From Escherichia coli (GTDB lineage: Bacteria > Pseudomonadota > Gammaproteobacteria > Enterobacterales > Enterobacteriaceae): DNA of 64,000 nucleotides. The first letter of the stretch is position 1. Each line of letters begins with the position of its first letter. The stretch lies in assembly GCF_041248615.1 (NCBI RefSeq), contig NZ_CP158426.1. One strand, 5' to 3'. Under the pieces are notes generated by a model. That model ran no database searches, had not been told where the DNA came from, and was given only the letters and a program-made list of their open reading frames with translations. Shown one piece after another: positions 27,257 to 60,941 of this stretch. Both the position numbers and the translations under genes were made by a program.

Positions 27257-27265
27257 GGAACGGCA

Positions 27266-29584: not shown

Positions 29585-29598
29585 TCAATTTAAGAAAT

Positions 29599-29625
29599 GC
29601 CGGGTACGTCTCAATCGTACCCGGC
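29599..29625. terminator. Hairpin between convergent yicI and yicH
   Basis: GCCGGGTACG-tctcaat-CGTACCCGGC has a perfect 10-bp stem. It lies 15 bp after the yicI stop and 12 bp after the yicH stop. The flanking U-runs are weak. Confidence 0.5.
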
Positions 29626-29636
29626 GAGATTGATTT

Positions 29637-31346: not shown

Positions 31347-31466
31347 GGTCTTCCATCCCGTGAAAAGCACATAAGGGAGTTATGCACGATTTACGCGCAA
31401 TCCTCAAGGCGGGAATGGTGAAAGAGGTGAGACTGCGGCGGTAATTATCTTACCGCCGCCAGTGAA

Positions 31467-32858: not shown

Positions 32859-33136
32859 CGAAAACAATCCCGTGGTAGCAAAGCGGGCATTTTAGCTGAC
32901 CGAAAGAGAAAAGCAAACGTTTGCCACATCCTCATCTAAATATTTAAATGAGATAAATGCACTTTTTTATATAACTTTTGGTATTTTTCTGCTTAAAATC
33001 CATGCCATTTGTTCATTAACAGCTGAGAATTTGACCCAGGAAAGCATAACTCGATACCCGTCATAGTTCATAAGTTGCCACTGCGCGATGAAGTATGACG
33101 AGTATGAAAGAGTGATGCGGATACAAAGGAGTAACT

Positions 33137-34342: not shown

Positions 34343-34344
34343 AA

Positions 34345-37277: not shown

Positions 37278-37282
37278 GGCAC

Positions 37283-37972: not shown

Positions 37973-37978
37973 AAAACA

Positions 37979-40087: not shown

Positions 40088-40105
40088 GGGCGACCCGCTT
40101 TGTGA

Positions 40106-40381
40106 TTAACGACGACCTTCAGCAATAGCGGTAACGGCTTGTAATTCAGCGGCTTCCTGCTCTTGCTGTTCCTGGCGTTCGCGAACGTCGAGGATCTGGT
40201 TGTTGATCAGACCTTCTTCGATTTCGCGCAGCGCGATTACAGTGGTTTTATCGTTTTCTTCCGGTACCAGCGGATCCTTTCCGCCTACCTGCATCTGACG
40301 AGCGCGACGCGCGGCGACCAGTACCAGGTCAAAACGGTTACCAATTTTCTCTACAGCGTCCTGAACAGTTACGCGTGCCAT
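40106..40381 (-). CDS. rpoZ: RNA polymerase omega subunit
   Basis: 91 aa starting [45 protein letters not shown]... Confidence 0.97.
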
Positions 40382-40435
40382 ACTTAAAAAGCTCCACAGG
40401 TGAAGAAATGACTGGGCATGATACTGAAATCAGGT

Positions 40436-41223
<788 letters not shown>

Positions 41224-41224
41224 C

Positions 41225-43616
<2,392 letters not shown>

Positions 43617-43907
43617 GGTTCTCTCCCTAAAAATCTGTCTGGCAGGGTAGCGATTTGTGCGTATTGTCACGATTGAGATTTTTTAAGGTGAGAGGAAATT
43701 GATAACTTGTAGTTATGTGAAATCGCTATTTTCTGTAGCGTAGATGCATTCTTCTGACTTCTTGTCTGAGAAAATGCATAAGAAAAAATAGGTTAAAATT
43801 GAGGGGTGGAAAAGAAAGGTGCAATGTTTAGCCATTGTGTTCACCGCACCTGGACTTTGGCTTACGCATCGGGTATCTCAATCAACAAAAAGAGTTTTTA
43901 GTTTCTG

Positions 43908-44732
43908 CTATTTCTTCTCTGTAATTTTTACTCTGTTTTCCAACTGCTTGATGCTGACCTGCTGGGTCGGCAACTCCTCAGGCATGGTTCCGCCAAGTTC
44001 CTGAATGGTTTGCCTCACCTTGCGGCCCACGTCAAAGTGTGTGGTGTTAGCTTGCTGTTTTGAATTCACGCCATCCCGCTTGAGTTTTTCTTCTGTTTGG
44101 GTAGCTCGAAAGAGATTAGCCGCCAGTTCTGTTGAACCCATATGATCCAGGATCTTCTGACTCTTTTTCAGCCCCTTCCGCTGATGGATGGCTTTCTGAT
44201 CTAATCCACCATACAGTCCCCGGTAACCATGATTCTGAAATATGGCGAAATCGATAGCTGTCGCTACCCCAGCTTGCTGCGCTGCCTCAACTAATTGTTT
44301 GTTATGTTCTTTCAACTCATTTCTCAGAAAAAGACGCTTTTCGTCTTCACGAAGTTGCCTGAAAGCTTCATCGTCAGCCAGCTCCTGCCGTCGGGTCTGG
44401 ATAGCAAAATAAGTTTGTCCTGCCGCAATAACCGGTTTCGCAGGGTCGCCGTTTTGTACTACCAGGTAACAGGCATAGCGGGAGAGTACGATGTCTTTTA
44501 ATGCTCTTTTGGCATTTGAGCCAATTTTGACCATATCGAGGATCTCCTCGAAATGGTCATCAATGGTGTGACCACTATTCAGACAAGCTTCTTTGGCGCG
44601 CGTTAATACAGGTATAAAGTGACGATACTCTGAATAACCCAGTAGTTTTCCAAGTTGTCTTGCTGACCATTGTTCTGCTCCGTTTGCATTAATCAGCTTT
44701 ATCTCTTCAAAAGGTTGATGATGTTCGTTCAT
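43908..44732 (-). CDS. dinD: DinD DNA-damage-inducible protein
   Basis: MNEHHQPFEEIKLINANGAEQWSARQLGKLLGYSEYRHFIPVLTRAKEAC... gives 274 aa. Confidence 0.95.
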   Translation of the reverse strand: MNEHHQPFEEIKLINANGAEQWSARQLGKLLGYSEYRHFIPVLTRAKEACLNSGHTIDDHFEEILDMVKIGSNAKRALKDIVLSRYACYLVVQNGDPAKPVIAAGQTYFAIQTRRQELADDEAFRQLREDEKRLFLRNELKEHNKQLVEAAQQAGVATAIDFAIFQNHGYRGLYGGLDQKAIHQRKGLKKSQKILDHMGSTELAANLFRATQTEEKLKRDGVNSKQQANTTHFDVGRKVRQTIQELGGTMPEELPTQQVSIKQLENRVKITEKK

Positions 44733-44775
44733 TGCCCACTCCATGTGATATCGATTGCAAGGAAAGTAAGTCTAC

Positions 44776-44795
44776 AACTGTGTTTATATACAGTT
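44776..44795 (-). promoter_or_regulatory. LexA box of dinD
   Basis: The minus strand reads AACTGTATATAAACACAGTT (CTGT-N8-ACAG), 44 bp upstream of the dinD ATG. This matches the known dinD SOS box position. Confidence 0.85.
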
Positions 44796-44886
44796 GTAAG
44801 TATCTCACGTTCTCACTGCGCTGGGCAAAAAAACATCGCAAAATCTGGAGCAGGCACGCAAAACAGAATTGAATGTTGCGGGGAGG

Positions 44887-44919
44887 AAAAATGCCGCTCT
44901 GTTTGAGTGGGCGGCATTT
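44887..44919 (-). terminator. Rho-independent terminator (native yicC terminator)
   Basis: The minus strand has AAATGCCGC-13 nt loop-GCGGCATTT followed by TT (T5 in total). It lies 35 nt downstream of the yicC-type stop codon at 44954-44956. Confidence 0.7.
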
Positions 44920-45057: not shown

Positions 45058-45442
45058 GGTTTTTTCGGGTGCTTTGGCCAGAAGCCATTGTCTACATCCC
45101 TCACGATCGAGGTGTGTAACCATGTTCAGGCTTGTTGTCCTGCGCGCGCGTATTGCTCGTGAAATTGCTGTAACCAATAGTGATGTCCGAAAAAACCTCC
45201 GTTCTCACATGAAACAGCCATGTGCAACTGGTAACTGAATAGACTGGTAGACCGTTCGTTCAGTAAATACCTGATATTTTCGCCAACGAGAAATTGCGTT
45301 GGCTGGCAGAGTACAAATTTGCACGATGACCTAACCCATTGATTTTTTCGAAAACCTACAATGCAGGAAGCCGGATAACACCATTTTTATAGCTCCGATC
45401 CCTTCAAAGTGAGGGGGAATTTGCCAAAACAGAGAGAGAGCA

Positions 45443-45730
45443 TTACTGTCTCTGGCAATCTTTATCGCGATAACGCCTGAAGTACCCTCTCGCTTCCTCA
45501 TCCATACCAAGAGCCGAATGAGTCCGCTTAACTGCCTGTCTTAAATCTCCGAATCTGTCTGTAGTTGCTGGTGGGCGTGCCGCCTTACGGATACATTCAG
45601 AGCGTCTGTTTGCTGCATGTTCACGTTCTTTATCGCCATCTGCCAGCATCATGACTTCTGCCCATCGTGCGGCAGCTCTCCGGTATAGCCCTTTTGACTC
45701 CAGCTCTTCAGCTTTCCTGTCCCTTATCAT
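45443..45730 (-). CDS. PerC-family transcriptional activator
   Basis: 95 aa. MIRDRKAEELESKGLYRRAAARWAEVMMLADGDKEREHAANRRSECI... is the PerC/Pch signature (AEELE.KGLYRRAA.RW). Confidence 0.75.
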   Translation of the reverse strand: MIRDRKAEELESKGLYRRAAARWAEVMMLADGDKEREHAANRRSECIRKAARPPATTDRFGDLRQAVKRTHSALGMDEEARGYFRRYRDKDCQRQ

Positions 45731-45766
45731 TTCTGCCTCTCAGATTATATAGATAAGCAAAAAGGT

Positions 45767-45887
45767 GTTGGTTCAGTTGGTTCAGTTGGTTCAATTTGTA
45801 AAGATCGTTGTTTTTATTGTGTTTTTTCTGAAATGTTGAACCAACATCAACTCATTTTGAACCAACACAGCCCAGCTCTGAACCAAC
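45767..45887. repeat. Iteron cluster A: 3x GTTGGTTCA (contiguous, 9-bp period) + AT-rich spacer + 3x inverted TGAACCAAC (21-bp period)
   Basis: Direct copies are at 45767, 45776 and 45785. Inverted copies are at 45837, 45858 and 45879. Positions 45760-45804 are 45/45 identical to the reverse complement of 54129-54173. Confidence 0.8.
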
Positions 45888-45940
45888 AACACAGCGATAG
45901 CTTTGTGATTGGTCCGTTATTTTCTGGCTGATATTTGAGC

Positions 45941-45972
45941 GTATAACAGTGTTATACAGTGGTATACTGTAT
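45941..45972. promoter_or_regulatory. Two overlapping perfect palindromes upstream of the RHH gene (candidate operators)
   Basis: GTATAAC-agt-GTTATAC spans 45941-45957 and ATACAGT-ggtat-ACTGTAT spans 45954-45972. They lie 18-50 bp upstream of the ATG at 45990 and overlap TATAAC/TATACT -10-like hexamers. Confidence 0.5.
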
Positions 45973-45989
45973 GGATATTACTCACTGAT

Positions 45990-46430
45990 ATGGTCTTTGC
46001 AATGAGCAAATCTAATCTGATCGCGTTCCGCATCCCATCTGAATTGCAGGATGAGTTTAATCGGTCTGTTCTCGCTTCTGGAGGGGATAAAACCTCCTGG
46101 CTTGTTGATGCGATTCGCATGAAGCTGGGACAGCCGGAAAAGTCTATTGATTCACGAATGCTTGGGCTGGTGGAGCGCATGGAAAAAGCCGCAGCATCGC
46201 TTATTGCCGGAAAGCCGAACATCCCACCAAAGCCATATAACGAAACGGCAGTTATAAAGATCATTGCCGATACCATCCGACAGGGATTTGATAATGGGCG
46301 TGTGATAGCGGAACGGCTCAATGAAGCAGGCTACCAAACAAAAGCTGGTAAAGCGTGGGATAAAGACATTTACAGCGCGTGGAAGCGTCAGGGTAACAAT
46401 ATTAAAAGAATCAATACGCTGCTTCAGTAA
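45990..46430 (+). CDS. Ribbon-helix-helix-type DNA-binding protein with recombinase-like C-terminal domain
   Basis: 146 aa. The N-terminus SNLIAFRIPSELQDEFNRSVLASGGDKTSWLVDAIRMKL has an RHH pattern. The C-terminus ...IAERLNEAGYQTKAGKAWDKDIYSAWKRQ resembles the LN..G..T..G..W motif of the serine-recombinase 'recombinase' domain. The start may be 46002. Confidence 0.6.
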   Translation: MVFAMSKSNLIAFRIPSELQDEFNRSVLASGGDKTSWLVDAIRMKLGQPEKSIDSRMLGLVERMEKAAASLIAGKPNIPPKPYNETAVIKIIADTIRQGFDNGRVIAERLNEAGYQTKAGKAWDKDIYSAWKRQGNNIKRINTLLQ

Positions 46431-46459: not shown

Positions 46460-47437
46460 TCAATCGCTCCCTTTCCGCCCTTCAGCTACAGGGTCGTTGT
46501 CGGCGATAACAAAACCTAAGTCCTGAGAGAATCTCTCTCGTGGGAATCCTTTAGCAGGTAAACCCATTGAATCATATCCACATCCGGGAACATTTGGTTT
46601 AGAGTCAATAAGGTCTGCAATTTGCCGAAGCCATGTTGATCCCGGACCAAGTCGTTTAACTAAGTACCAGATAATACAGATCGCGCTAAAAATCCTCTCG
46701 CAACTCTCTGGATGGAGATTAAGTCCGTCAAAGTATTCATTATCCGGTACTGGAACTCGGGGATGCTTTCTATTCCATATTCTGGAATGGTGAGCGCAAC
46801 GATTCCTTATGAGATTAAGGCACTTCAACCATTTTGCAAATGTCTGCTTATTATCAATGCCAAAACGACGTATAATTTTCCCCTGCATATGACCATTAAG
46901 CATCGCATAATATTTAGACATCTGACCAAAATCCCAGGTCTCCACCGCCACCCAAAATGGAATCTCCTTGCCTTGGCTTCGATGCCATTCAATACAGTCA
47001 TCTCTGCTTTCGTCTAATTTTACTTTTTGCTTATACACCCAATGCTCGAAGGCAGATGAGAATTTTGGATTAATGTATTTTGATGACATGTAGGCAAGTG
47101 GATCATTGCGACCAACCTCATGCGCGATGACTGAACGAACATGAATCTCTATTCTTTCGATAGCATCAATCATCAAAAGACGCAGTTTTTTGTCAAAAAG
47201 ATATAGATCGTACGTCTTCTCGAAACTGGTACCAGCAAGAAATCGGTCTGTTCTGTACGAAAGACCTTTATCTGTTGTCGCAATAATTCTTGATGGGTAC
47301 CAAAAACCTGACAATCGATAATATCCAACCTGCGACAGCTTACGTATCGCACGATTTCGATCATTGATAATCATGCCACGTTCAAGTAGCAATCCTAGCA
47401 ATTCGTGATAGTCCTTATGAGGCTTTGCGGCAATCAT
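46460..47437 (-). CDS. Abi_2 (AbiD/AbiF-like) abortive-infection family protein
   Basis: MIAAKPHKDYHELLGLLLERGMII...YYRLSGFWYP...FWVAVETWDFGQMSKYY...LNLIRNRCAHHSRIWNR carries the hallmark R/N..AHH.R.WN motif. The track ORF starts 15 codons upstream. Confidence 0.8.
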   Translation of the reverse strand: MIAAKPHKDYHELLGLLLERGMIINDRNRAIRKLSQVGYYRLSGFWYPSRIIATTDKGLSYRTDRFLAGTSFEKTYDLYLFDKKLRLLMIDAIERIEIHVRSVIAHEVGRNDPLAYMSSKYINPKFSSAFEHWVYKQKVKLDESRDDCIEWHRSQGKEIPFWVAVETWDFGQMSKYYAMLNGHMQGKIIRRFGIDNKQTFAKWLKCLNLIRNRCAHHSRIWNRKHPRVPVPDNEYFDGLNLHPESCERIFSAICIIWYLVKRLGPGSTWLRQIADLIDSKPNVPGCGYDSMGLPAKGFPRERFSQDLGFVIADNDPVAEGRKGSD

Positions 47438-47910
47438 AGTGGCGAAACAAAAGATAATAAAAGGCCCGACCGTGAAACTCACATGCCTGAAATCGGCGGC
47501 GGAGAAACAGAGGATCGGGCTCGGTTGCCTGTAACTCTATCCGAAGTTATCCACATGTCAATGCACAGTTACTTAGGAAACTAACATAGATACTATCATC
47601 ACTCACGAAAAACCACTATATGTGGTTTTTATTCATATTGTTATCCACTACAGGCTGTGTCAATAACTTTTACCTATTAATTGGGTAATTTCTACATTTT
47701 CCTATGCTGGCTAGTTTCTCTACTGAAAAGTTGGCACTCCTTAATCGCTTTTCGGTTAATACTATCGGTCTTCATATTGCCAGCAGCATACGCCATCCGA
47801 TAATTTCTATGCTACGCGCGCGTACTTGTCGCAAAATATCAGGCAAAGGCCAGATTCAGAACGTCGTGATAACCACCAGCACAACATGAGATGTCATGTA
47901 ACGCGATTTA

Positions 47911-48170
47911 TCACACCAGATACATGTGATTGGTGTACCCGCATAAAACATCGTCATAGCGCGTCCTGTGCGCATATACGCCGATAATCAACACATCACC
48001 ACCACTCTGTCTTATGTAGAGAACAGTTTTATGGTGCTCCCCGCCATCGTGTGCGTACTGGTCGGACGTAGTTGCAAAATTTTTTGCAACTGATACCCCT
48101 CGCGCGCGTACTGGTCACGAAATTGGTGTTTTGCTGTGGCAGTGATATCAGAAAAATCTTCCTGTTTCAC
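47911..48170 (-). pseudogene. Possible frameshifted RelE/ParE-like toxin remnant
   Basis: The N-terminal frame (from GTG 48170) reads KQEDFSDITATAKHQFRDQYAREGYQLQKILQLRP... A second frame, shifted by one nucleotide, reads ...HKTVLYIRQSGGDVLIIGVYAHRTRYDDVL...*. Joined, they would give about 86 aa with a ParE-like C-terminus. No antitoxin partner is recognised. Confidence 0.3.
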
Positions 48171-48309
48171 ATAAAGCGGATATGCGCGTACTGTAACGGC
48201 CCCATCAACTGGGAGCGGATTTGAAATCCCGACCCAAGCTATGTACCAAATGCCATGTCTTGGATATATGATGATTGCCATTCTAAACAACGCTAAAGGG
48301 AGGGTTGGT

Positions 48310-48708
48310 GTGAATCAATTGAAGCGATTGGTTGTCTCCGGTTTATTATTTGCTTCTTTTGGAGCGAACGCTGAATGCTGGATTATTGGTGATCTGAAAG
48401 GACAAGAAGCCTCAAGTTCAGATGGGTATAACTATAAGTTATCATCTATACCAGATACCTTTCATTTGGTAATAAGTAAAGAGAAGGCGGATCTTATCTT
48501 GGCAAAAGATGGTATAGGTGGAGGTATTGATTATTACCCGCTATCTCCGAATGCCATGATGGGAAGAAGCTATCGAGATGGTCAACTGACGCTTGTCACA
48601 TGGGCAATCTCAAATGACGGAAAAGTGATCCATACACGAACAATTAGTCGATCTGATATAGGCTCATTTACAGGCTCATTTGTCGGCAATGTTAAAGGCA
48701 AGTGTTAA
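48310..48708 (+). CDS. Secreted 132-aa protein of unknown function
   Basis: GTG start, 6 nt after AAAGGGAGGG. The signal peptide is (M)NQLKRLVVSGLLFASFGANA|ECWIIG. It is low-GC and I recognise no family. Confidence 0.6.
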   Translation: MNQLKRLVVSGLLFASFGANAECWIIGDLKGQEASSSDGYNYKLSSIPDTFHLVISKEKADLILAKDGIGGGIDYYPLSPNAMMGRSYRDGQLTLVTWAISNDGKVIHTRTISRSDIGSFTGSFVGNVKGKC

Positions 48709-48770
48709 TGTTCATAACTATTTGAAAAAAATACTAATTACTATTATAACCAACCATCCATGGCCATCTG

Positions 48771-50876
48771 TTATTGAGCTTCCTTTTGCGATGCTTGTGC
48801 TGCTGTGGTCAGTGATTGTGTGACCGTACTGATCGCTCTGTCATATGCTGTGCTACCTTTTGGCGTATTTGCCAGACGTAACAAGGCATTTCGTATAACA
48901 GGGCTTTCGTATGCCTTCGCTGCTCCGCCTACGGCACCAGCAGCAGGAACAACAAACGCAGCCGTTTTTAGCATCCCCGCTAATACTGCTGCGTTTATGA
49001 TGCCACCACCAACTAACAATCCATAAAGCTGCTGACCATTTAAGTTTTGAACGTTCGCTTTTGCCGCGTGTCTTGTATCGTTGAGGTATTTAATAACGCC
49101 GTCCAGTTCCTTTCCATGTACGCCTTTAAAGAAAGTTGCTGATTGCTTCCTGTTCCGGTGTAACGCATTAATAAACTTCTCAACACTGATATTTCCAGAC
49201 GGATCAGTCGCCTTATCTACAGCATTCTGAACTATAGCTGCTCGTGCGTTTTGCCTACCATTGTCATCCAGAAGCCTGTAAAGCTGAGAACGTTCTGATG
49301 GGCTTTGGCTAAAAACGAGTTTTGTTACATCCTCAGGCGTGGCCTTGCCGCTGGCTATTGCCTTTTGAACGCGCGTTCTTCCCATCATGTCATTGAATTT
49401 AGACCATGAGCGATCAACCCTTGCCATATTAATGGCTTCGTCTGCTCCAAGATTTTTGGCTACGGCTTTTTTCATATCCGCCGTATATGCCTTGTAGATA
49501 ATATCGCTGGCTTTCTGGAGCGTATCTTTATCAACAGTGTCAGATGACGCCATAAATCGCTTTCGAAGATCGGTTCTGTTTTCCCTCGCCAGACGCAGGT
49601 CATTTGGTCCGCTGGTGATATCGTCTTTAAATTGCTGCAAGACTTTTACCGCGGCTCTATCCTGAGATTTGCCCGGGCGGCTTAACACGGCAATCTGATT
49701 GTCGATAGCTTTTACCGTGTTTGAGAGATCGACAGGGGTATCCCCCATAGCGTCAATTATGCGGTTATATCGCTTTCCTGCTGCCTCAATGAATTTTTGT
49801 TGCCCTTTAGTCGCAGATTCATAAAGCTGTTTATCAGAAATGCCACCCAGACCATCGCTAAATGTTCTGACTAAATTTTCTCGTGCTTGTTGTTGATTCA
49901 GCCGATTCTTACCGGTTCCAAAAAAAGGAACTCTTTCGCCTAATGTCTGAGCCTGACTCTGCATAAAGGTTTTATCTTTCAACATGTCACTGGTCATTAA
50001 CGGCAGATTTCTTTCCGATGCAAAGTCGACAGCAGCCTTTGCTTCAGGCGACATATCACCACGAACAGCCCTCGAAACCGCACTCGCTGTATTTTCCAGC
50101 CCCTTACCAATACCACCAATGCCAGCAGAAATTACCGTTTGTAACGGATCAATATCTTCTCCACCAGCAAGGCTGGTGGCTCCCTGTAGTGCTAAATCTG
50201 TAGCTGCTGATTTCCCTATGGCCCCCAGCACCGTTCCGGCCCTGCCCGCTGGTGTAAACGCCAGCGCATTAGCCAGAAACGATGCCACGTCTTGCGGCGA
50301 TAAACCCGGCTTGTTCAGAGCATAATCACCGGATGGCAGGGAAACGATAGTGTTACCCTTCTCATCCTGCCTTAATTTCGCTCCCATGCTCTGAAGAATC
50401 TTTTCCTGAGATGCGTCAGAGCCGAAAAGTTGAGACCATCGAGCTTTTAGAGCATCCATGCTGAGTGAGGTTAACTCTGGGGCAAGGTCGACATTTTGCA
50501 GTCTCTCCATCTCTGGAGTCATTCGGCTTTCGCCTGTTATAGCATCGCGCATCGCAGCCCCAAGACTGGCTCCCTGTTCTGCTGAACGCTCAAGCCCCTC
50601 TCTTTGCTGAGTAGCTAACTTTGCATACCCTGACGCAAGAGAATTATCAGATGATGTATGTTGAATATTTTGAGTTGCTGATTGGTATCGGTCTATTTCA
50701 TTCGTTGATGGTAGTGGATAGGCAGCATAAAAAGCCTGCTTAGCCTGCTCTACACTTTCTCCGGCTTGCGGGGCAACGACTTCATTAAAGTATTGCTCCT
50801 GAGCCTGCGCTTTTTGTTCTGGTGCTAACGCCTGATACTGTGGAGAGGCGATAACATCTTTCCATGCTTTAGCCAT
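48771..50876 (-). CDS. P22 gp16-like ejection (DNA-transfer) protein candidate
   Basis: 701 aa and the last gene of the operon. It has ...KPGLSPQDVASFLANALAFTPAGRAGTVLGAIGKSAATDL... and a Gly/Ala-rich hydrophobic segment near the C-terminus (LLVGGGIINAAVLAGMLKTAAFVVPAAGAVGGAA). Position and size class match P22 gene 16. Confidence 0.5.
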   Translation of the reverse strand: MAKAWKDVIASPQYQALAPEQKAQAQEQYFNEVVAPQAGESVEQAKQAFYAAYPLPSTNEIDRYQSATQNIQHTSSDNSLASGYAKLATQQREGLERSAEQGASLGAAMRDAITGESRMTPEMERLQNVDLAPELTSLSMDALKARWSQLFGSDASQEKILQSMGAKLRQDEKGNTIVSLPSGDYALNKPGLSPQDVASFLANALAFTPAGRAGTVLGAIGKSAATDLALQGATSLAGGEDIDPLQTVISAGIGGIGKGLENTASAVSRAVRGDMSPEAKAAVDFASERNLPLMTSDMLKDKTFMQSQAQTLGERVPFFGTGKNRLNQQQARENLVRTFSDGLGGISDKQLYESATKGQQKFIEAAGKRYNRIIDAMGDTPVDLSNTVKAIDNQIAVLSRPGKSQDRAAVKVLQQFKDDITSGPNDLRLARENRTDLRKRFMASSDTVDKDTLQKASDIIYKAYTADMKKAVAKNLGADEAINMARVDRSWSKFNDMMGRTRVQKAIASGKATPEDVTKLVFSQSPSERSQLYRLLDDNGRQNARAAIVQNAVDKATDPSGNISVEKFINALHRNRKQSATFFKGVHGKELDGVIKYLNDTRHAAKANVQNLNGQQLYGLLVGGGIINAAVLAGMLKTAAFVVPAAGAVGGAAKAYESPVIRNALLRLANTPKGSTAYDRAISTVTQSLTTAAQASQKEAQ

Positions 50877-52297
50877 TAATCACCCCATAGTGAAGAAAAG
50901 TTACTGCTGGCTGCTGGCTGTGATACCTGCTCAGATTGCGGCAATGTCTGCGACGAAGAAGCAGTTCCTCTGTCAACTGCTGAAATAACCCGCAAAGCAT
51001 CATAAGTTCGACCAGAAGCAGCTTTCAGCGAATTGAACTGGTTTTCCATCTTCCGGCGCTTGGTATCAATGGTTTTTGTGGAGTCGCCAGGCTGAGGGAA
51101 ATACATTTGATAATATTTTGACATTTCAGCAGGTGCGATAGCTGCCCCTGTTTCCTGACGGAGTATTGCCATTATTGCGTCATTAGCATTAACAACGTAT
51201 TGCTGCTCTGCTGGGCTGAGCGTTAAGTTAGCCAGCGTCCCATTACCCAAAGCATTATTAATGATCGCCACTCGCTGTGGGCTAAGCTGGTCTTTCAGTG
51301 TATCTATTGAATCAAGAGCATCCCTAACCCTGTATGCAAATCCAGCAGCTTTTTTAGCCCCATCTGGCGACTTTTCCATGATCTTTTGGGCTGTTGGCAA
51401 AGCTATTGGACGAAACCCATCTCCAGATATTGGCTGGTTTAGTTTTCCCTGCTCTTCACTTCCGTCTGTGTAGTATTTTGTGACAGTGCCATCATCGTTT
51501 TCTCTAACACTCATTAATTTTTTGGCGTTTGTATTAATTCCAGCCGCTGCCGCAAATGCCGCCGCCCCCTCTGGATCCGCCTTTAACATTTGAGCGTACT
51601 GATTGTAATTCTGCATTGCTGCTGTTGGTGCATATGCTGACGTTAACGCATTTGCTCGGTTAATATCCTGCCCTCTCGCCTGAAGTGCTTCGCTGGCCTG
51701 ATTGCTGCGGATTGTCTCTGCCAACTTGCCACGTTCAATATCCCGACCTTCCATTTGATCTTTGATATCGAAATACTTCTCATGACCGAGAGAAAACAGT
51801 GCCATACTACCAGCAAGCCGCTGGAATCCCTGTGGATCATTAACATGCATTTCGGCAACAGACTCAGGAGAAATTCCCAGGCGACGCATTTCATCTTCGT
51901 TATCTGCTATGAATTTTCCAAATGCCCCAGTTCCGAGCGAAGATGCGATTTGAGCACTAGTCGCAAGATGACCAATAGAATTTCTCTGGTCGTCATCAAT
52001 AAAGCCCATCCCTTTCTGAACGCTTTCAAATTCTTCTGGATACTCAGAAATAAGACTGCGCATTTTGTTTCTGTCTCCAGACTCAAAAGCCCCGGCATAT
52101 GCTTTCTGAAACTCTGCTTTACGCTGTTGTTGACGTGCCTGCTGATTAATCTCAGCAACGCCTCTTAGCCCCTGTAGCGCCATTAAACCTACGTTTGGCT
52201 GCTGCTGATACTGCACAGGCTGAGGAACGGAAGAACGAGGAGCATTATCATTTTGCGGTGCCATGCTAGGCAGCCCGCCAAGTTGCCATGTCGCCAT
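50876..52297 (-). CDS. P22 gp20-like ejection protein candidate
   Basis: 473 aa (P22 gp20 is about 471 aa from memory). The N-terminus is Gln-rich. It overlaps both neighbours by 1 nt. Confidence 0.5.
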   Translation of the reverse strand: MATWQLGGLPSMAPQNDNAPRSSVPQPVQYQQQPNVGLMALQGLRGVAEINQQARQQQRKAEFQKAYAGAFESGDRNKMRSLISEYPEEFESVQKGMGFIDDDQRNSIGHLATSAQIASSLGTGAFGKFIADNEDEMRRLGISPESVAEMHVNDPQGFQRLAGSMALFSLGHEKYFDIKDQMEGRDIERGKLAETIRSNQASEALQARGQDINRANALTSAYAPTAAMQNYNQYAQMLKADPEGAAAFAAAAGINTNAKKLMSVRENDDGTVTKYYTDGSEEQGKLNQPISGDGFRPIALPTAQKIMEKSPDGAKKAAGFAYRVRDALDSIDTLKDQLSPQRVAIINNALGNGTLANLTLSPAEQQYVVNANDAIMAILRQETGAAIAPAEMSKYYQMYFPQPGDSTKTIDTKRRKMENQFNSLKAASGRTYDALRVISAVDRGTASSSQTLPQSEQVSQPAASSNFSSLWGD

Positions 52298-52974
52298 TAG
52301 AATCCAAGCCCCCCAACAAGACCAATAAGCCCACCACCAATAGCGCCGGCCGCAGTTCCTATTCCAGGAACAACGGAACCAAGTTGCGCACCCGCTAAAG
52401 CGCCTGATGCTGCCCCACCAATACCACGCGCAAGACTGGATGGCTGCTGCGCCTGACCTGCACGAATAGCGCCAAGCCCCTGCAAGAGTTGTCCGGTATT
52501 ATTGGCGTAGTTTTGCCCTGCCGTTGCCTGCCCTGATGCCGCATTCATCCCGACATTTAGCAGGTTTCCATAATTTTGCATTTGCCCACTAAGCCAATTG
52601 TTATAAAGCATGGGCGCAATGGAAGATAACTGGTTACTGGTAGCTGTTGAGCCAAGCCCCCCGGTAGCTTCTGCTGAGACAAGGTTCTGATAACGGGCCT
52701 GATCTGCCTGTGTTTTATATAAACCAGAACCAAAGAAATCATTCGCGGCTTTATTCTGCCCTTCCAGAGTCATCAGTCCTTGTAGTTGTTGTAAAGCAGG
52801 CAATCCGACTTCTGCATACGGCTTGAGATTATTCATCACCGTATTCCACTGCTCGCGCTGCAAATCAATTGCCTGCTGCTGGGCCTTCGCCTGAGCTTTA
52901 GAGGCACCACCATCACCGCCTTTTTCGTATACGGCACGATTGAGATGTTTATGAGCTATATGGGTAATTAACAT
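52297..52974 (-). CDS. P22 gp7-like ejection protein candidate
   Basis: 225 aa (P22 gp7 is about 229 aa from memory). ...YEKGGDGGASKAQAKAQQQAIDLQREQWN... and the Gly-rich C-terminal tail GIGTAAGAIGGGLIGLVGGLGF resemble gp7-type DNA-transfer proteins. Confidence 0.55.
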   Translation of the reverse strand: MLITHIAHKHLNRAVYEKGGDGGASKAQAKAQQQAIDLQREQWNTVMNNLKPYAEVGLPALQQLQGLMTLEGQNKAANDFFGSGLYKTQADQARYQNLVSAEATGGLGSTATSNQLSSIAPMLYNNWLSGQMQNYGNLLNVGMNAASGQATAGQNYANNTGQLLQGLGAIRAGQAQQPSSLARGIGGAASGALAGAQLGSVVPGIGTAAGAIGGGLIGLVGGLGF

Positions 52975-53429
52975 TCGCTGAATTCCTTATATTGTTGCCG
53001 AGTTAACTGATAAAGCGTTACGCCGACGGGTTTACCACATCTGATATAAGCATCATCAAGGTGACCAACACGGGTAGCGCCAAGCAAACGGATAATTGCC
53101 CGTCCGTATTTCGTGGTGTCAGGAACCATAGTGATGCTGTTAAGGAATGGTGAGTTTTCGAGAAGCCATTTGCAGAATAATCGATGCCCTTGCAGTGCAT
53201 ATTCACCACGGAATCCGGGGTCGTACACCGCATGGCATTCAACAATGCTATGCCAGAAGTTACGCACTTCATGAACGCCAGCCAGCACCAATCCTTCGTA
53301 GATGCCGAGATATACCGCATCAGGCTTGATGTAGTACGTGTGCCCCGGCTCAACAATATTTTCGGTATTGCCAGGATCGTTAAGAAAGGCCTGTAATCGC
53401 ACAGGGTTATCAATAAATTTTAGTTCCAT
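52968..53429 (-). CDS. 153-aa protein in the position of P22 gene 14
   Basis: It precedes the gp7/20/16-like genes with a 7-nt overlap. MELKFIDNPVRLQAFLNDPGNTENIVEPGHTYYIKPDAVYLGIYEG... looks like a small alpha/beta (acetyltransferase-like) protein. The assignment rests on synteny only. Confidence 0.4.
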   Translation of the reverse strand: MELKFIDNPVRLQAFLNDPGNTENIVEPGHTYYIKPDAVYLGIYEGLVLAGVHEVRNFWHSIVECHAVYDPGFRGEYALQGHRLFCKWLLENSPFLNSITMVPDTTKYGRAIIRLLGATRVGHLDDAYIRCGKPVGVTLYQLTRQQYKEFSEC

Positions 53430-53445
53430 GCGATGCCATCCATTT

Positions 53446-53607
53446 TCACATACAGCCTGCCAGCGCCTTATCTATTAACCCTCGAGCAATTTCATGCAGA
53501 GTTGGCGCTACTCCAATTCCTGATTTTTTACGCTGCTCTTCCTGAATTTTCTTTATCGCTTCCATTTGCTTCTCACTTATCAATACCGGCTTTACTGAAA
53601 TAGCCAT
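53446..53607 (-). CDS. 53-aa ribbon-helix-helix-like protein, first gene of the operon
   Basis: Below the ORF-track cutoff. ATG lies 5 nt after AAGGGGG. The sequence is MAISVKPVLISEKQMEAIKKIQEEQRKKSGIGVAPTLHEIARGLIDKALAGCM, with a strand-helix-helix pattern like Arc/Mnt. Confidence 0.55.
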   Translation of the reverse strand: MAISVKPVLISEKQMEAIKKIQEEQRKKSGIGVAPTLHEIARGLIDKALAGCM

Positions 53608-53646: not shown

Positions 53647-53702
53647 GTTTCACAAATCGCAATATTCATCATCGTAATTGCAAAATATGAAACAGATAGC
53701 AC

Positions 53703-54055: not shown

Positions 54056-54166
54056 GTTGGTTCAAAATACCGTGTTGTTGGTTCAGTGTTGGTTCAATAA
54101 AAAGAATAAAATCCTTATAAAACAATACTCTTTACAAATTGAACCAACTGAACCAACTGAACCAAC
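54056..54166. repeat. Iteron cluster B: 3x GTTGGTTCA + AT-rich spacer + 3x TGAACCAAC (contiguous), mirror image of cluster A
   Basis: GTTGGTTCA occurs at 54056, 54077 and 54088. TGAACCAAC occurs at 54140, 54149 and 54158. The cluster ends 26 bp from the stop of the primase-helicase gene. Confidence 0.8.
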
Positions 54167-54191
54167 ACCTTTTCTACGCACATGAAGAAGC

Positions 54192-56951
54192 TCATTCTTC
54201 AGATGAGTTATAATCTCCTGGCTGGTAATTGAGTACATAAACGTTTATTTGTCGTCCCTGAATACGTGGTGATTTTCTTTGGTATCCACGACCGCTGTTT
54301 GGTGGGGTTAGCATCCCGGCTTTTTTCAACACTTCAGCAAACTGTTTTGCGTTGAAACCACATGCGATCTCCTTTTCAAATGTGGCCGGGAATGTGTAGA
54401 AAATCATTGGGCTTTCGTCATGTTCTCCACGCTGACGGTATCCGGCTAAATCTTTGATGGGCAAATCTGCCGGGCTGTATGGAAATGGTGCAAAACGGCT
54501 AAGCCCATAGGCATTAAGAAATGCCTCCGTTTGTTCAATAATCTGCTGATGCTCTTTGTTACCTGTGCCGAACTCGCGCAACCATGCGTTATAGCTGTGC
54601 TGTATCGCATCACGGCATGTCTGAGCATCCCAGCCTGTTACAACCTCGCCTAACAACAATGCGGCCTCCAGAATGGCAAATCGCGCGGCTACACGGTGAA
54701 CCTGCTCACCATAATCGGATGGGATCAGGCTTCTCCATCTGCTTTCGCAGTCACGAACGGTTTTAATAGCCTGTTGCTGGTGGTCTGCCAGCCATTTAAT
54801 CCACTCACGCCCGGACGCGCCGTGGTGATGCTGGTAAGCGTCTTTCAGTGCGTCTGCGTGCTGTTTTCCGTTCTGGTAATCGTGAAAGCGTACTGCTTTA
54901 CTCAACGGAATATTCAGCAGTCGCACCAGTTGCCCGGCTTTGGTTTTTCGCCCGGAAGTAGCGATAAATGTTTCTAAATCCATTTCTCCGGTGCTGATTG
55001 CCACTGTACGCCAGCGTTTTAGATCCCGGTTTCCACCATCTTTAGCGCCTTGCAGTTTCCCTACACCGTTAAATAACGCATAGGCAGACTGTGAAACGCT
55101 GACAGGATCAGCGCCCTGACCAACTTCATCAAGCGGCATTAGTCCGTCATTGTGGGCGGCGGCCTCATTTGCCAGCCCCAGCGCGGTTCCGTACCACGTC
55201 AGCCGCAGTAAATCAGGGTTGCCGTATAAGCTGCTCGCCACGTTTGCCGTGGTGGTCTTACCTGCGCTCGACTGCTCATAGAAATGAATGCCGAACCCGT
55301 CAGCGCCCACCAGCCCAATCAATGGCGCTGCCAGTGCTGCGCCGATCCCGGTCATCATTGAATAGTTACCAAAGGCCAGACGCGCCACGTTATCACGCCA
55401 GCTTTTCGCGCTCCCTGAGACGGTATATCCGGCTGCGGCTGAGCTTCTCCCGCTGAACAGCACAGGATTTTCAGGTGTTCCGATGATTTCCCCATCAGGC
55501 ATGATGTACGCTCCGCATTGCCAGCCAGTGGCATGAGCAACACGCCACAATTCACGAGAGCCACTGCGTTGTAGCCAGTCTGCCAGTATTGCTCTGAGGC
55601 TGCTTTTGGTCGTGACATTTACCCCACCAGCTTTAAGTGTGCGCCATCCTTCACGTTCACCAATATCAGCCAGTGGAATGGCAGCGGTTGTCGGCGTTTC
55701 AGAACCAAACGACAGCCAGCGAAGAATGAGATACTGGTCTTTATCGTCTCTGCCAGTACCGATAACGCTTAACGGAGAACATAACCAGCTTTCGTTATTG
55801 ATGATTTCTCCACTCTGGCTGTCAGCTCTCGGAGATACCCAATAAATACCATCCTCGCGGCTTTCTATTCTTGGTTTCAGTGGATCGGTATCCATAACCT
55901 TAAAATCGCTTCCCTCAATGGTCTGTGGCTCCTGTTTCACGCCATTACCCTGTGGTTGGTACATTGACTTATTGAACGCTTCTGTGGCGCATTTAATGCC
56001 GTGTTTTTGGTGGTAATCATTCCAGTCTGCTTTGTGATCTGTCGGGGGTAATGCCACCCATCCAGAAACAGATAAAGCTGCTTTTTCTGCTGCTATTCTC
56101 CCCGTGTTTTGTCTTCCTTCGCTGTGGTCGTTATCCGCAGCAATGATGATTTGTGCTGAAGGAAATTTATCCCGCAGTACCTGGGCGACATATAACAGGT
56201 TCCCGGCATCAATCGCCGCCACTGTCAGCGCCTCTGGACGAATTAAATGGGCAGATAATGCCGTTGCCAGCCCTTCTGCGATTAAGATGCTCTGTGTTGT
56301 TTCTGGTGCGTTTATGGCGTGATATGCCCCCCGCTTTGCTGAACCTGTCAGGAGTCTTTTTTCACCATGTGAGGTAATAGTCTGTGCTGCTGTGACTGCG
56401 CCGGATTTATCCACCAGCGCCAGCAACAGAGATCCATCGGGCAACACGGGGAATGTAAAATCACCTACCCCTTTCGCAACCAGATAATCAGATTTGCCGT
56501 TTACAGCCTTTCTGCGCATGTCATCAAACTGACGGGAAAACGTATCCCGTCTTTGTTGTTCGTCCTTCTCTGCCCTTTTCAGGCGCTCCTGTTCGCGTCG
56601 CTGGCGCTCGGTTTCCAGTTGTTCCCGTTTCTGGCTGGTGGCTTCTGGTGTTTCCGTTGTCCGGTAATCAATACCCAGAACATCAGCGGCAAGAAGCGCC
56701 GCCTCTGTTGTGTCGCAGTTATTTACGCGTTTAATTAAATCCAGCCCATCACCAGCGCCGCACTGATTACAGATGAAGCTACCGCGCCCGTTGTCATCGA
56801 ACCGGAATCGATCTTTGCCCCCACATGCAGGGCAGGGAGCATGACGGCGCGGAGAGTCAGGGACATTTATGTTCAGGCAGCCCAGCACATGAGGCCAGTT
56901 GTTTTCAGACGCACTGATAACCTGACGGATAAGATCAATGTTTCGCATCAC
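54192..56951 (-). CDS. P4 alpha-like primase-helicase (Zn-ribbon + Toprim + DUF927/SF3-type NTPase)
   Basis: 919 aa with Zn-binding CPACGGKDRFRFDD...FICNQCG. Toprim motifs are ILIAEGLATALS and IIIAADNDHSEGRQNTG. Walker A is YEQSSAGKTTT. Confidence 0.85.
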   Translation of the reverse strand: MMRNIDLIRQVISASENNWPHVLGCLNINVPDSPRRHAPCPACGGKDRFRFDDNGRGSFICNQCGAGDGLDLIKRVNNCDTTEAALLAADVLGIDYRTTETPEATSQKREQLETERQRREQERLKRAEKDEQQRRDTFSRQFDDMRRKAVNGKSDYLVAKGVGDFTFPVLPDGSLLLALVDKSGAVTAAQTITSHGEKRLLTGSAKRGAYHAINAPETTQSILIAEGLATALSAHLIRPEALTVAAIDAGNLLYVAQVLRDKFPSAQIIIAADNDHSEGRQNTGRIAAEKAALSVSGWVALPPTDHKADWNDYHQKHGIKCATEAFNKSMYQPQGNGVKQEPQTIEGSDFKVMDTDPLKPRIESREDGIYWVSPRADSQSGEIINNESWLCSPLSVIGTGRDDKDQYLILRWLSFGSETPTTAAIPLADIGEREGWRTLKAGGVNVTTKSSLRAILADWLQRSGSRELWRVAHATGWQCGAYIMPDGEIIGTPENPVLFSGRSSAAAGYTVSGSAKSWRDNVARLAFGNYSMMTGIGAALAAPLIGLVGADGFGIHFYEQSSAGKTTTANVASSLYGNPDLLRLTWYGTALGLANEAAAHNDGLMPLDEVGQGADPVSVSQSAYALFNGVGKLQGAKDGGNRDLKRWRTVAISTGEMDLETFIATSGRKTKAGQLVRLLNIPLSKAVRFHDYQNGKQHADALKDAYQHHHGASGREWIKWLADHQQQAIKTVRDCESRWRSLIPSDYGEQVHRVAARFAILEAALLLGEVVTGWDAQTCRDAIQHSYNAWLREFGTGNKEHQQIIEQTEAFLNAYGLSRFAPFPYSPADLPIKDLAGYRQRGEHDESPMIFYTFPATFEKEIACGFNAKQFAEVLKKAGMLTPPNSGRGYQRKSPRIQGRQINVYVLNYQPGDYNSSEE

Positions 56952-58918: not shown

Positions 58919-59129
58919 TGGTTGCCCCCGTTTTTACTGGCATTTCGCCACCTTCCAGCAGGAAATGAACGTCACGAACGGCGAGATCCAATATCGCGAG
59001 TAACGCCTTCAGTTTTTCGTCTCGTGAGGGAGAGTTGCTCACCAGAATGTCATTAATCACTTCTGTCAGTGTGATGATCTGGCTTGTGCGTTCGAGGGGG
59101 TCCATATGCACATCGTAGGTTTTAATCAT
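58911..59129 (-). CDS. Small helical protein (72 aa)
   Basis: MIKTYDVHMDPLERTSQIITLTEVINDILVSNSPSRDEKLKALLAILDLAVRDVHFLLEGGE... Its ATG overlaps the stop of the Icd-like gene (CATGATTAA). It is in the same frame as the long 342-aa track ORF. Confidence 0.45.
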   Translation of the reverse strand: MIKTYDVHMDPLERTSQIITLTEVINDILVSNSPSRDEKLKALLAILDLAVRDVHFLLEGGEMPVKTGATNE

Positions 59130-59316
59130 GTGCCACCTCCATGCGGATACGACCAGCAAAAAAGCAGACGTGATCGCGCACCAGAGAACGGCGAGCATCG
59201 CGTTCAGACTCGGCAGCAATATGATGAATTTTGGCGGTAATTGTCGGGCAATCGCGGCGAACTGCGGCGATAATCCAGATAAATTGCGGTTTTTGGGTAG
59301 GGGTAGTAGCCAGCAT
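59122..59316 (-). CDS. Icd-like (P4-type host cell-division inhibitor-like) protein
   Basis: 64 aa. MLATTPTQKPQFIWIIAAVRRDCPTITAKIHHIAAESERDARRSLVRDHVCFFAGRI matches the KPQF/Y.W...A..R...A..E.EARR.L....FAGR pattern I remember for Icd-like proteins of P4-like prophages. There is a strong SD (AAGGAGG) 7 nt upstream. Confidence 0.6.
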   Translation of the reverse strand: MLATTPTQKPQFIWIIAAVRRDCPTITAKIHHIAAESERDARRSLVRDHVCFFAGRIRMEVAHD

Positions 59317-59379
59317 GTGGCAGCCTCCTTGATTGATGGTTTATAGCCACCGCCGGAGGTCCTAAGCTCGCTGGCGGTG

Positions 59380-59450
59380 GACTGTACAGGGTTAGGACTA
59401 CTGGCAATCAAGGAAACCAGCCTGACCGAAGTCAGCCCCATACAGCCCAC
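59380..59450 (-). ncRNA. Candidate P4 CI-like immunity RNA (seqB-bearing segment); boundaries approximate
   Basis: The minus transcript contains GGGGCUGACUUCGGUCAGGCUGGUUUCCUUGAUUGCCAGUAGUCCUAACCC. The motifs GAUUGCC and GUCCUAA are complementary to an upstream site (59514-59536) and a downstream site (59359-59365). CCUUGAUUG is complementary to the SD region of the Icd-like gene. Confidence 0.35.
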
Positions 59451-59480
59451 CATTGATAAGGTGTGCGTGTGCGCCGATAC

Positions 59481-59501
59481 AAAAAAAGACGCTGGCGCGT
59501 C
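59481..59501 (-). terminator. Short GC hairpin + U7 inside the leader (candidate immunity-controlled terminator)
   Basis: The minus strand reads GACGC-gcca-GCGTC-TTTTTTT. It lies between the seqA-like and seqB-like elements. Confidence 0.4.
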
Positions 59502-59932
59502 ATGTATCGCCTCGATTGCCTGCGGGGTCCTAATCCCGGCACCCGTTTTATGAGGTGCCTTATAACCATAAACCGTGTTGCCGCATAACGGCAAGCTCTT
59601 TTTTATGGACTCCGAAAACTCACTATTGGAAGAACCAGATGCACAATACATCGCGCTCATTTCGTTAACGTCACGCGCATGGACGAAGGTTTTTGTGGAG
59701 TCACTACGCGAGAAGAGAAAGCCATCTACGACCAGAAATTCTCTGGCGCAGCCGCTGACCTTCTCAACGCTAACACCATCGACCGTAATTTCTGACATGG
59801 TTAAGGCATCCGCTCCTACCACCAGCAAATGACAAACTTTGCTTGTATCTGCTGTATTAATGCCTGACTTTGCTGTCATATTGCTGGATTTTGGCGACAT
59901 ACCAGCCAGTGAAAATATCTTCTTCTGGACGG

Positions 59933-60115
59933 TTAGCATTTGTTAACCTCCGCGAACTCCTTCATGAAGCGCGCCAGCGGTTGTACGCATGGCGATTGAT
60001 ACCCGTCGCGATAAAACGTCACTCGGTTGTGAGACACGCTTTCGACAGTAACGAGTGCTCCGTGGGCATCTTTGTAGCGTTTTTGTGGTTGTGGTATTCC
60101 TGTTGGCTTAGACAT
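59933..60115 (-). CDS. DUF4222-like small protein (60 aa)
   Basis: MSKPTGIPQPQKRYKDAHGALVTVESVSHNRVTFYRDGYQSPCVQPLARFMKEFAEVNKC shows the pattern KD..G..V.V......V.F.RDGY......P...F.K.F. Its ATG overlaps the upstream stop (AATGTCTAA). Confidence 0.5.
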   Translation of the reverse strand: MSKPTGIPQPQKRYKDAHGALVTVESVSHNRVTFYRDGYQSPCVQPLARFMKEFAEVNKC

Positions 60116-60941
60116 TGAGCGCCTCCAGACGCTTGGCGAGCCAGCGTTGCGACAGGTGGGTGAGTTCTCCTTTGCGCTGCTCATATTCCATGCCCATATC
60201 AATTAACGTGATATTGGTGCTTTCGAGATATGAGAGGTGCTCAAGCTGTTCTGCGTTCATATGGTCGCGAGGTTCGCCAGAATAGCCATTTATCCGCGCC
60301 CACTGCTTAGCAGTTAGCCCTCCAAGAACGATACGAGAAATCATATTGCTCTCGTTTGTGTAGTGGTGTTGCTGCGTCGTTTTCCCCTGCTCGGCACGGG
60401 CCATATTCAGCGCATCGCACATTGGCTTAAAGTTGTTTGCGGCACTGATACGGGCTTTTAGCTGGCGACGATAGCGGGCGGCGATTTCAGGCACGCTACG
60501 CTGTAATTCTTCCTCGCACTGGATGAAATAACGACGGATAGCGCGACCCTGATCATTGCGTTCGATCATTGCCAGTTCTTTCGCCATTCCGACACTTAAC
60601 AGATAGTCTTTGCCGGGTCTGCCAGACTGCTTAATCTTGCTGTAAGCCGCGCCATTCGGGCTTTTCCCCAAATTTGGGGAAATTGTTTTATGGACTGAGT
60701 AATCGTGCCCAATGGTGAAGTCATATTCAGAGATGCGATCAGTGATCCATGTAGAGAAGTCTTTTCCCACGCCCAACGCTTTGTGTAACGCTTTTGCGCT
60801 AACAATATTGGTTTCACGCCCACCGATGTGACCAGGAATAACCGGGACAATTGCGGCAAATTCATTACCGTTAATTGTGCCCAGAGAGGCGTTCAGATGA
60901 GGGGCGGCCTCAGAAATTAATCTGCTTTTTTCGATGTTCAT
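60108..60941 (-). CDS. Phage antirepressor-type protein (AntA/Bro-N-like N-terminus + KilAC-like C-terminus)
   Basis: 277 aa, with ...NIVSAKALHKALGVGKDFSTWITDRISEYDFTIGHDY... and ...DYLLSVGMAKELAMIERNDQGRAIRRYFIQCEEEL. Confidence 0.7.
   Translation of the reverse strand: MNIEKSRLISEAAPHLNASLGTINGNEFAAIVPVIPGHIGGRETNIVSAKALHKALGVGKDFSTWITDRISEYDFTIGHDYSVHKTISPNLGKSPNGAAYSKIKQSGRPGKDYLLSVGMAKELAMIERNDQGRAIRRYFIQCEEELQRSVPEIAARYRRQLKARISAANNFKPMCDALNMARAEQGKTTQQHHYTNESNMISRIVLGGLTAKQWARINGYSGEPRDHMNAEQLEHLSYLESTNITLIDMGMEYEQRKGELTHLSQRWLAKRLEALNV

Follow-up and report, generated by a model that had tools for sequence, protein, structure and literature searches.

A predicted replication origin 3' of pri-rep in an integrative PICI of Escherichia coli, with a second iteron module 8.2 kb away

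The origins published for PICIs and SaPIs consist of two opposed sets of iterons around an AT-rich core and lie immediately 3' of pri-rep (PMC6092414, PMC9371898). For the E. coli island EcCICFT073, the pri-rep-ori segment was reported to drive plasmid replication (Fillol-Salom et al. 2018, PMC6092414). The Rep proteins of SaPIs are self-loading, and their C-terminal winged helix binds iterons located directly after rep on both sides of the AT-rich centre (Qiao et al. 2022, PMC9371898). EcCIMP1 of E. coli MP1 is a PICI that is induced and transferred by the P22-like phage Kapi1; the paper describing it makes no mention of an origin or of iterons (Pick, Stadel and Raivio 2025, PMC11773190). Here, we analyzed a stretch of 64,000 nucleotides of E. 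coli (contig NZ_CP158426.1), referred to below as the window.

The window contains an island of ~19 kb, located between dinD and yicC, that extends from ~44954 to just past the window end. Nearly all of its genes are on the minus strand; the plus strand carries two small genes, a 155-aa ORF and a 146-aa gene. The first part of the island has the order integrase, AlpA-like HTH protein, AntA antirepressor, DUF4222, ash, Icd-like, small ORFs, a 919-aa gene and a cluster of repeats that we term M1. After M1 follow a small ORF, gp14/DUF2824, gp7, gp20, a gp16-like gene, the 155-aa ORF, Abi_2, the 146-aa RHH-like gene, a second cluster of repeats (M2) and PerC. The PICI gene set (int, alpA-like and pri-rep, with no genes for capsid, tail or lysis) and the near-single gene orientation are present, and four genes for virion-internal ejection proteins are also carried. 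The element is very probably an integrative PICI, having the organisation of Gram-negative PICIs, and 7.3 kb around pri-rep are 98.6% identical to EcCIMP1. Among 5426 complete E. coli genomes, M1 and the 3' end of pri-rep occur together in 363 (~7%), and the M2-PerC region occurs in 334. The coordinates of the features are listed in Table 1.

Table 1. Positions in the window of the predicted origin modules, the pri-rep gene and other features of the island
Feature	Position	Strand	Remarks
pri-rep gene	54192..56951	-	919-aa primase-helicase-initiator
C-terminal winged-helix domain, residues 840-919	54195..54434	-	presumed iteron reader
R892-K893-S894 codons	54270..54278	-	wing strand beta-2; track iteron sequence
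Predicted origin module M1	54056..54166		111-bp span; six exact GTTGGTTCA in two inward-facing sets
M1 contiguous iterons, pri-rep direction	54166-54140	-	first in pri-rep direction, followed by the core
AT-rich core of M1	54097..54139		43 bp, 16.3% GC; presumed melting site
M1 spaced iterons, pri-rep direction	54096-54088, 54085-54077, 54064-54056	+	three copies after the core, facing back
Predicted origin module M2	45767..45887		between PerC gene and 146-aa gene; 8.2 kb from M1
Cargo between M1 and M2	46460..53607	-	splits the predicted origin, not part of it
Abi_2 abortive-infection gene	46460-47482	-	in cargo between the modules
155-aa phrog_2651 ORF	48241-48708	+	in cargo between the modules
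P22-like ejection-protein genes	48771-53429	-	gp14/DUF2824 153 aa; gp7 225 aa; gp20 473 aa; gp16-like 701 aa
Icd-like ORF	59122-59316		
C4 antisense RNA	59370-59457	-	Rfam, 80 bits
isrK	59482-59558	-	Rfam, 63 bits
antA	60108-60941		

The domain composition of the 919-aa protein was analyzed by sequence, profile and structure comparison. Pfam places a Zn_Ribbon_Prim domain at residues 35-70, Toprim_3 at 222-319 and a DUF927 helicase at 366-644. Over residues 8-362 the protein shares 33% identity with the P4 alpha primase domain (BLASTP, E 2e-41), and beyond residue 362 neither BLASTP nor profile comparison detected any similarity to P4 alpha. The SaPI Rep initiator-helicase (PDB 8TCH) matches residues 403-814 with an E value of 1.4e-11, and the SCCmec Cch protein (5DGK) also matches the DUF927 region. 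Sequence and profile searches with the last 140 residues against the PDB and P4 alpha gave no match. AlphaFold2 modelled these 140 residues with a pLDDT of 82.7 when given a 46-sequence alignment and of 42 with a shallow 17-sequence alignment. The best structural match of the C-terminal domain was the C-terminal domain of SaPI Rep; in a Foldseek search against the PDB the matches were weak (E of at least 0.14). In the model, residues R892-K893-S894 lie on strand beta-2 of the wing, after helix 868-877. Because its primase matches P4 alpha, its middle part matches SaPI Rep and Cch, and its C-terminus was modelled as described, the 919-aa protein is a Pri-Rep fusion, made up of an alpha-type primase and a helicase-initiator of the SaPI-Rep type that ends in a winged helix.

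M1 lies directly 3' of this gene. Its plus-strand copies of GTTGGTTCA start at 54056, 54077 and 54088 (21 and 11 bp from start to start), and its minus-strand copies form a contiguous head-to-tail triplet at 54140-54166. Only 0.24% of the 43-mers in the 64-kb window match the AT-richness of the spacer between the two sets. As the stop codon of the 919-aa ORF occupies 54192-54194, leaving 25 nt between it and the nearest iteron, the array begins at the 26th base after the stop. A sequence-only reading of the same DNA had described six copies of a 9-mer within 111 bp, arranged three against three with 21- and 11-bp spacing around a 43-bp AT-rich spacer and starting 26 bp after the stop of the 919-aa gene; every one of these details holds, but that reading missed the other six of the window's 12 copies, which form M2. 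A total of 12 copies of GTTGGTTCA compares with 0.65 expected in the 64-kb window, and none of 100 shuffles reached 12. Copies with one or two mismatches were not enriched in the window (169 observed versus 190 expected); thus, the copies of GTTGGTTCA are exact and confined to the clusters. Three ORFs that overlap M1 (79, 83 and 51 aa) were treated as artefacts; RefSeq annotates no CDS there, and in one of them the triple repeat is translated as EPTEPTEPT.

Read on the minus strand, the M1 core contains the motif TTGTTTTATAAGG, which can also be written TTG(T/A)TTTATAAGG and which occupies a fixed site in loci of three iteron classes, its position being kept from class to class. When up to two mismatches were allowed, 19 related loci, including ones with GTTGTCTCA or GTTGTACCA iterons, were found to have the motif between +65 and +71 from the stop codon (in the Morganella locus L028 at +115), and it was never found in M2. 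Its fixed position in M1 and its absence from M2 point to M1 as the melting site. Scans for sigma-70 promoters around M1 and M2 found none (for M2 the region scanned was 45300-46200), and terminator-like matches were obtained near 53700. DnaA boxes are absent from the origin regions, the nearest being at 47547, inside the cargo, and inspection by eye revealed no IHF consensus in the spacer of either module.

We analyzed relatives of the locus by scanning one genome per species, which yielded 80 loci, numbered with the prefix L; ~60 full-length loci were examined, and 58 had enough downstream sequence. An iteron cluster was called where a k-mer was repeated at least four times near the pri-rep stop, and in almost all clusters the copies occur in both orientations. 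The sequence-only reading had made the conservation of the repeats in related elements part of its stake, and iterons do follow the stop codon in most of the ~60 loci, the cluster lying within ~120 bp of it and typically at 24-40 bp. In homologous loci, an M1-type module is located 24-30 bp after the stop. The iteron itself differs by lineage, and at least 12 different sequences were observed: GTTGGTTCA, GTTGTCTCA, GTTGTACCA, TGTGGTTCA, AGTGTGTCA and TTGGGATAA, and in further lineages CTGGTAACA, GGTGTAACA, TGTACTACA, GTGGTTACA, GTGGGTACA and AAACCGACC.

Co-variation between the iteron sequence and the C-terminus of the primase, a comparison that the earlier reading had suggested, was found across the homologs and centres on R892-K893-S894. 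We compared 20 loci carrying GTTGGTTCA with 7 carrying GTTGTCTCA; each of the two groups contains proteins that are ~80% and proteins that are ~52-55% identical to the query. Five of 924 alignment columns separate the two groups perfectly, and three of the five are R892, K893 and S894. All of the GTTGGTTCA loci (20/20) have RKS at these positions, all of the GTTGTCTCA loci (7/7) have (G/N)R(V/T), and other iteron classes have still different residues at 892-894. In a sliding-window analysis of 37 proteins, the association with iteron class was highest at residues 882-902, with an AUC of 0.93 versus a median of 0.47, and the AUC was 0.71 for residues 903-917, which are nearest to the origin. 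Because the iterons lie within 300 bp of the co-varying codons, co-inheritance of a linked block could mimic functional coupling. A signal that is point-like and weaker nearest to the origin argues against pure linkage, though linkage contributes. The comparison suggests that iteron specificity matches the initiator, as would be the case for cognate pairs, the physical linkage of the gene end to the origin being the caveat.

M2 is a paralog of M1 in mirror orientation, as seen when M1 is aligned with the reverse complement of M2, and the two modules have an exact stretch of 45 nt in common, AAAAGGT(GTTGGTTCA)3ATTTGTAAAGA. In M2, the three contiguous iterons (45767-45793) are on the plus strand; the spacer that follows measures 43 bp and has 23% GC, and the three minus-strand iterons beyond it, at 45837, 45858 and 45879, are spaced 21 and 21 bp apart. 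The 146-aa gene (+) and PerC (-) flank the module, which lies 36 bp ahead of the PerC start codon. In many relatives, M1 is followed by M2 in tandem, such that 10-12 iterons are found within ~280 bp after the stop; examples are loci in Klebsiella (L003), Enterobacter (L005 and L009), Pseudomonas (L026), Morganella (L028 and L031) and Beggiatoa (L068). In the tandem layout, the contiguous copies of M1 are followed by the AT-rich core and spaced copies facing back, and then by the spaced copies of M2, its spacer and contiguous copies facing back. The mutual orientation of M1 and M2 in these loci is the same as in the window. The M2 iteron is identical to the M1 iteron in tandem loci of four iteron classes, and the spacer within M2 of Morganella L028 shows recognisable homology to that of the window. 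An alignment of M2 from seven genera showed that the iterons are conserved and that the DNA between them has diverged; in L003, L005 and L042 the M2 spacer is GC-rich.

Loci of the GTTGGTTCA class have either 12 adjacent iterons or 6 plus another 5-6 at 1.9-9 kb. The split arrangement is found in the window and in L001, L014, L020, L022, L035 and L037, and within the 10 kb available only M1 was seen in L015, L018, L024 and L025. Taken together, the shared orientation, the spacer homology in L028, the iteron counts and the conservation of the M2 iterons make it look as if a composite origin had been opened up by accessory DNA inserted between its halves, and the occurrence of 12 adjacent or 6 plus 5-6 distant iterons suggests that the full set is kept. 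In the window, the inserted genes are the small ORF, the P22-like gp14/DUF2824, gp7, gp20 and gp16-like genes, the 155-aa ORF and the Abi_2 gene.

Some loci depart from the two-module layout. Among distant relatives, the Beggiatoa locus L068 has three modules between +17 and +531 after the pri-rep stop, and in the Vitreoscilla locus L064 (+81 to +790) seven copies that all point the same way form one array, with a second cluster ~450 bp further on; as these loci carry more than two modules, module number and polarity vary across the family. Locus L089 (NZ_CP119120.1, 1032824-1061334) is a decayed island in which the remains of a lambdoid prophage replace the int/alpA side; it keeps pri-rep, M1 and the ejection genes and is without M2. 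The outer flank of the contiguous M2 triplet (45731-45766 in the window) is conserved across genera as ACCTTTTT..CTTATATA. It includes a TATAAT at 45744-45749 on the minus strand, 13 nt before the PerC start, which is too close for a normal promoter. The 146-aa gene is directly preceded, at 45941-45974, by three direct repeats of 10-11 bp, GTATAACAGTG, TTATACAGTG and GTATACTGTA. These differ from the iterons, and the 146-aa protein, which looks RHH-like at its N-terminus, could use them as its own operator.

We consider it probable that M1 is the replication origin of this integrative PICI, read by the island's own 919-aa Pri-Rep, and that M2 is the separated second half of the origin. Because its anatomy matches the published PICI/SaPI design, M1 is with high probability an undescribed instance of this well-known kind of origin. 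By homology to SaPI Rep, Pri-Rep would be made upon helper-phage induction and excision of the island. Its C-terminal winged helices would then bind the 9-bp iterons, which form two inward-facing sets around the 43-bp AT-rich core. The core would melt, the DUF927 helicase would load itself, and the N-terminal Toprim primase would prime synthesis for the host polymerase. In this lineage, 1.8-9 kb of accessory DNA would have been inserted between the halves of an origin that was ~280 bp long and contained 12 iterons.

A more far-reaching version of this proposal, possible in our view but doubtful, is that the origin is truly bipartite and acts at long range. Pri-Rep bound to M1 and M2 would pair the two across 1.8-9 kb, looping out the cargo, and efficient initiation, or copy control, would depend on the two halves and their total of 12 iterons. 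If this were true, the island would provide the first case of a split PICI origin, which would have arisen independently of that of P4 and be served by a DNA-binding domain not homologous to that of P4 alpha. Cargo, here helper-derived ejection-protein genes and a defence gene, would then enter the island in the gap between the halves, and through a three-residue wing 'code' (RKS for GTTGGTTCA, GRV or NRT for GTTGTCTCA) the specificity for the origin could be re-targeted.

Alternatively, M1 alone could be the origin, with M2 being a set of regulatory iterons that either act with M1 in copy control of the handcuffing type or serve as an operator for the PerC and 146-aa genes. The position of M2 between these two genes, so close to the PerC start, is consistent with such a role, and in each split locus in which the 146-aa gene was found (L020, L022, L037 and the window), that gene has M2 just upstream of it. 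The core motif conserved in M1 is missing from M2, the M2 spacer of some loci is rich in GC, and M1 occurs without M2 both in some loci and in the decayed island L089. However, there are many relatives in which M2 directly adjoins M1, without an intervening gene and away from PerC and the 146-aa gene; the stretch 45300-46200 yielded no sigma-70-like promoter; and the adjacent or distant iterons add up to what looks like a retained full set. We therefore regard a purely regulatory M2 as rather unlikely, and favor the reading of M2 as the displaced half of the Pri-Rep origin.

The earlier reading took M1 to be the equivalent of the P4 site and the 919-aa protein to be an alpha-like primase-helicase. 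Taken literally, this would make the two clusters the ori and crr of a P4-like satellite whose replication system is homologous to that of P4 alpha, and the primase domain, the crr/ori-like topology of M1 and M2, and the presence of a C4-type antisense RNA and an icd-like gene would all fit. Likeness to alpha nevertheless ends at residue 362; the helicase is of the DUF927 type, and the DNA-binding domain resembles the C-terminal domain of SaPI Rep. The P4 type-I iteron TGTTCACC occurs 5 times in the window versus 2.1 expected and not once inside the element. The genes sid, psu and delta were found neither in the RefSeq annotation of the element nor in Pfam/PHROG scans of ten ORFs, and no cos-type genes are present in its RefSeq annotation. 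As a whole, the P4 reading is very unlikely. What stands of the earlier claim is an origin-like iteron site for the adjacent primase-helicase, supported by the conserved position in the ~60 loci and the winged-helix co-variation; what falls is the P4 equivalence, the element having PICI organisation and a DUF927 helicase, and 'alpha-like' is right for residues 8-362 and wrong for the helicase and the DNA-binding domain.

Two further readings fare worse. It is highly improbable that a transcription factor of the island (PerC, AlpA or the RHH-like 146-aa protein) uses the repeats as operators: one cluster does lie in a divergent intergenic region beside two regulator-like genes, but L006, L011, L016, L027, L030 and L032 have iterons after pri-rep and no detectable homologs of the 146-aa protein or PerC, the iteron sequence tracks the wing residues of Pri-Rep, and the 146-aa gene has distinct upstream repeats of its own at 45941-45974. 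It is scarcely credible that M1 and M2, although mutually inverted and bracketing a variable 1.8-9 kb of cargo, are the terminal inverted repeats of a mobile or invertible cassette, recombination sites or pac sites for the helper terminase, given that the 'empty' state in many genera has both modules side by side at pri-rep, which is unexpected of transposon ends, that the cargo contains no transposase or recombinase and has the same orientation in all copies examined, and that the co-variation with Pri-Rep would be left unexplained. We return to the view that the clusters are iterons of a Pri-Rep origin. Two other candidates were rejected: an oriV of an iteron plasmid (RepA/pi/TrfA type, with direct 17-22-bp iterons and DnaA boxes), as the iterons here are 9 bp and inverted and no Rep_3 was found in the scanned proteins, and a parS centromere, as there are no par genes.

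The island has further features apart from its origin. The ejection-protein genes directly after M1 encode full-length homologs of P22 virion ejection proteins. The same set is present in EcCIMP1, whose authors mention these genes only as possible packaging genes (PMC11773190), and gp14/gp7 homologs are found downstream of pri-rep in Leclercia (L025) and Buttiauxella (L043). A satellite that supplies its own ejection proteins is worth attention. The genes for C4 RNA and isrK lie just upstream of the Icd-like ORF, with antA further upstream, and this region is a P1/P4-style immunity cassette inside a PICI.

Several database records bear on the family. NZ_CP148430.1 (L001), a 12,152-bp circular E. 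coli record labelled as a plasmid, is a form of the element without ~6.8 kb of the cargo, including the Abi_2 gene and the 155-aa ORF, and its M1 and M2 are 1.8 kb apart. Its circular form is an indirect hint of autonomous replication. This 12-kb 'plasmid' and the 19-kb Klebsiella 'plasmid' CP031370.2 (L003) are circular forms of PICIs from the island's family; each has int, antA, pri-rep and PerC as well as the predicted origin. The record labelled 'plasmid unnamed1', NZ_CP134663.1, is a chromosome of 4.9 Mb. Two records of Campylobacter phages, MG065691.1 (A11a) and MG065686.1 (A18a), contain ~19 kb that are 97% identical to E. coli core chromosome (25473-44900 of the window) and are probably contaminated or chimeric.

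These results provide a predicted origin, and a predicted determinant of initiator specificity, for a common family of E. coli satellites. The comparison across the family offers a ready set of predicted cognate iteron/wing pairs for DNA reading of the SaPI-Rep type. It also suggests that kilobases of cargo can come to separate the parts of a compact PICI origin, and raises the question of whether PICI initiators can act on two distant sites, as P4 alpha does. For annotation, the unannotated 585-bp gap in RefSeq records would be explained by the origin, and the 12-kb 'plasmids' by excised satellites.

The P4 alpha protein is said by Ziegelin, Lanka and Calendar to pair ori with crr. According to the annotation of GenBank NC_001609, P4 crr lies 46 bp after the alpha stop and consists of two direct 120-bp repeats with type-1 iterons in both orientations, and ori is ~4.7 kb away. 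Since this record places one site by the 3' end of the gene and the other kilobases off, the layout is like that of the island, where M1 is at +26 and M2 is 8.2 kb distant; the likeness is one of layout only. The primase domains (Zn ribbon and Toprim) are homologous, and the modules of both systems are ~120 bp long with iterons in both orientations. In contrast, the helicase and origin-binding domains are non-homologous, the iteron is different, and crr is built of direct repeats. By analogy, P4 describes how the system may work, and not the family to which it belongs.

The likeness to SaPI1, SaPI5 and SaPIbov extends from the helicase core, which is homologous, to an origin that follows rep immediately and whose 6-12 iterons form opposed halves on either side of an AT-rich centre. 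The SaPI iterons are 5-6 bp long, whereas those described here are 9-10 bp; the hosts of SaPIs are Gram-positive; the primase of the island is of the P4-alpha Toprim type; and a distant second module is not described in the account of SaPI origins (PMC9371898). EcCIMP1 shares with the island both iteron modules, located 8.4 kb apart, the P22-like ejection-gene cargo and the PerC gene, and differs in its integrase and attachment site, which is a tRNA-Thr near proA rather than dinD/yicC. The displaced second half is the only feature of the island not described for PICIs in PMC6092414 and PMC11773190. In EcCICFT073, as here, the origin immediately follows the replication gene, opposed iterons flank an AT-rich region with the contiguous outer repeats pointing inward, and the island is organised as int-alpA-...-pri-rep-ori-PerC; its primase-family protein, however, has 584 aa and its iteron is TGTCTACC. 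The nine TGTCTACC-type iterons of EcCICFT073 form one 226-bp block that resembles the tandem state, whereas the corresponding block in the window is split by 8.2 kb.
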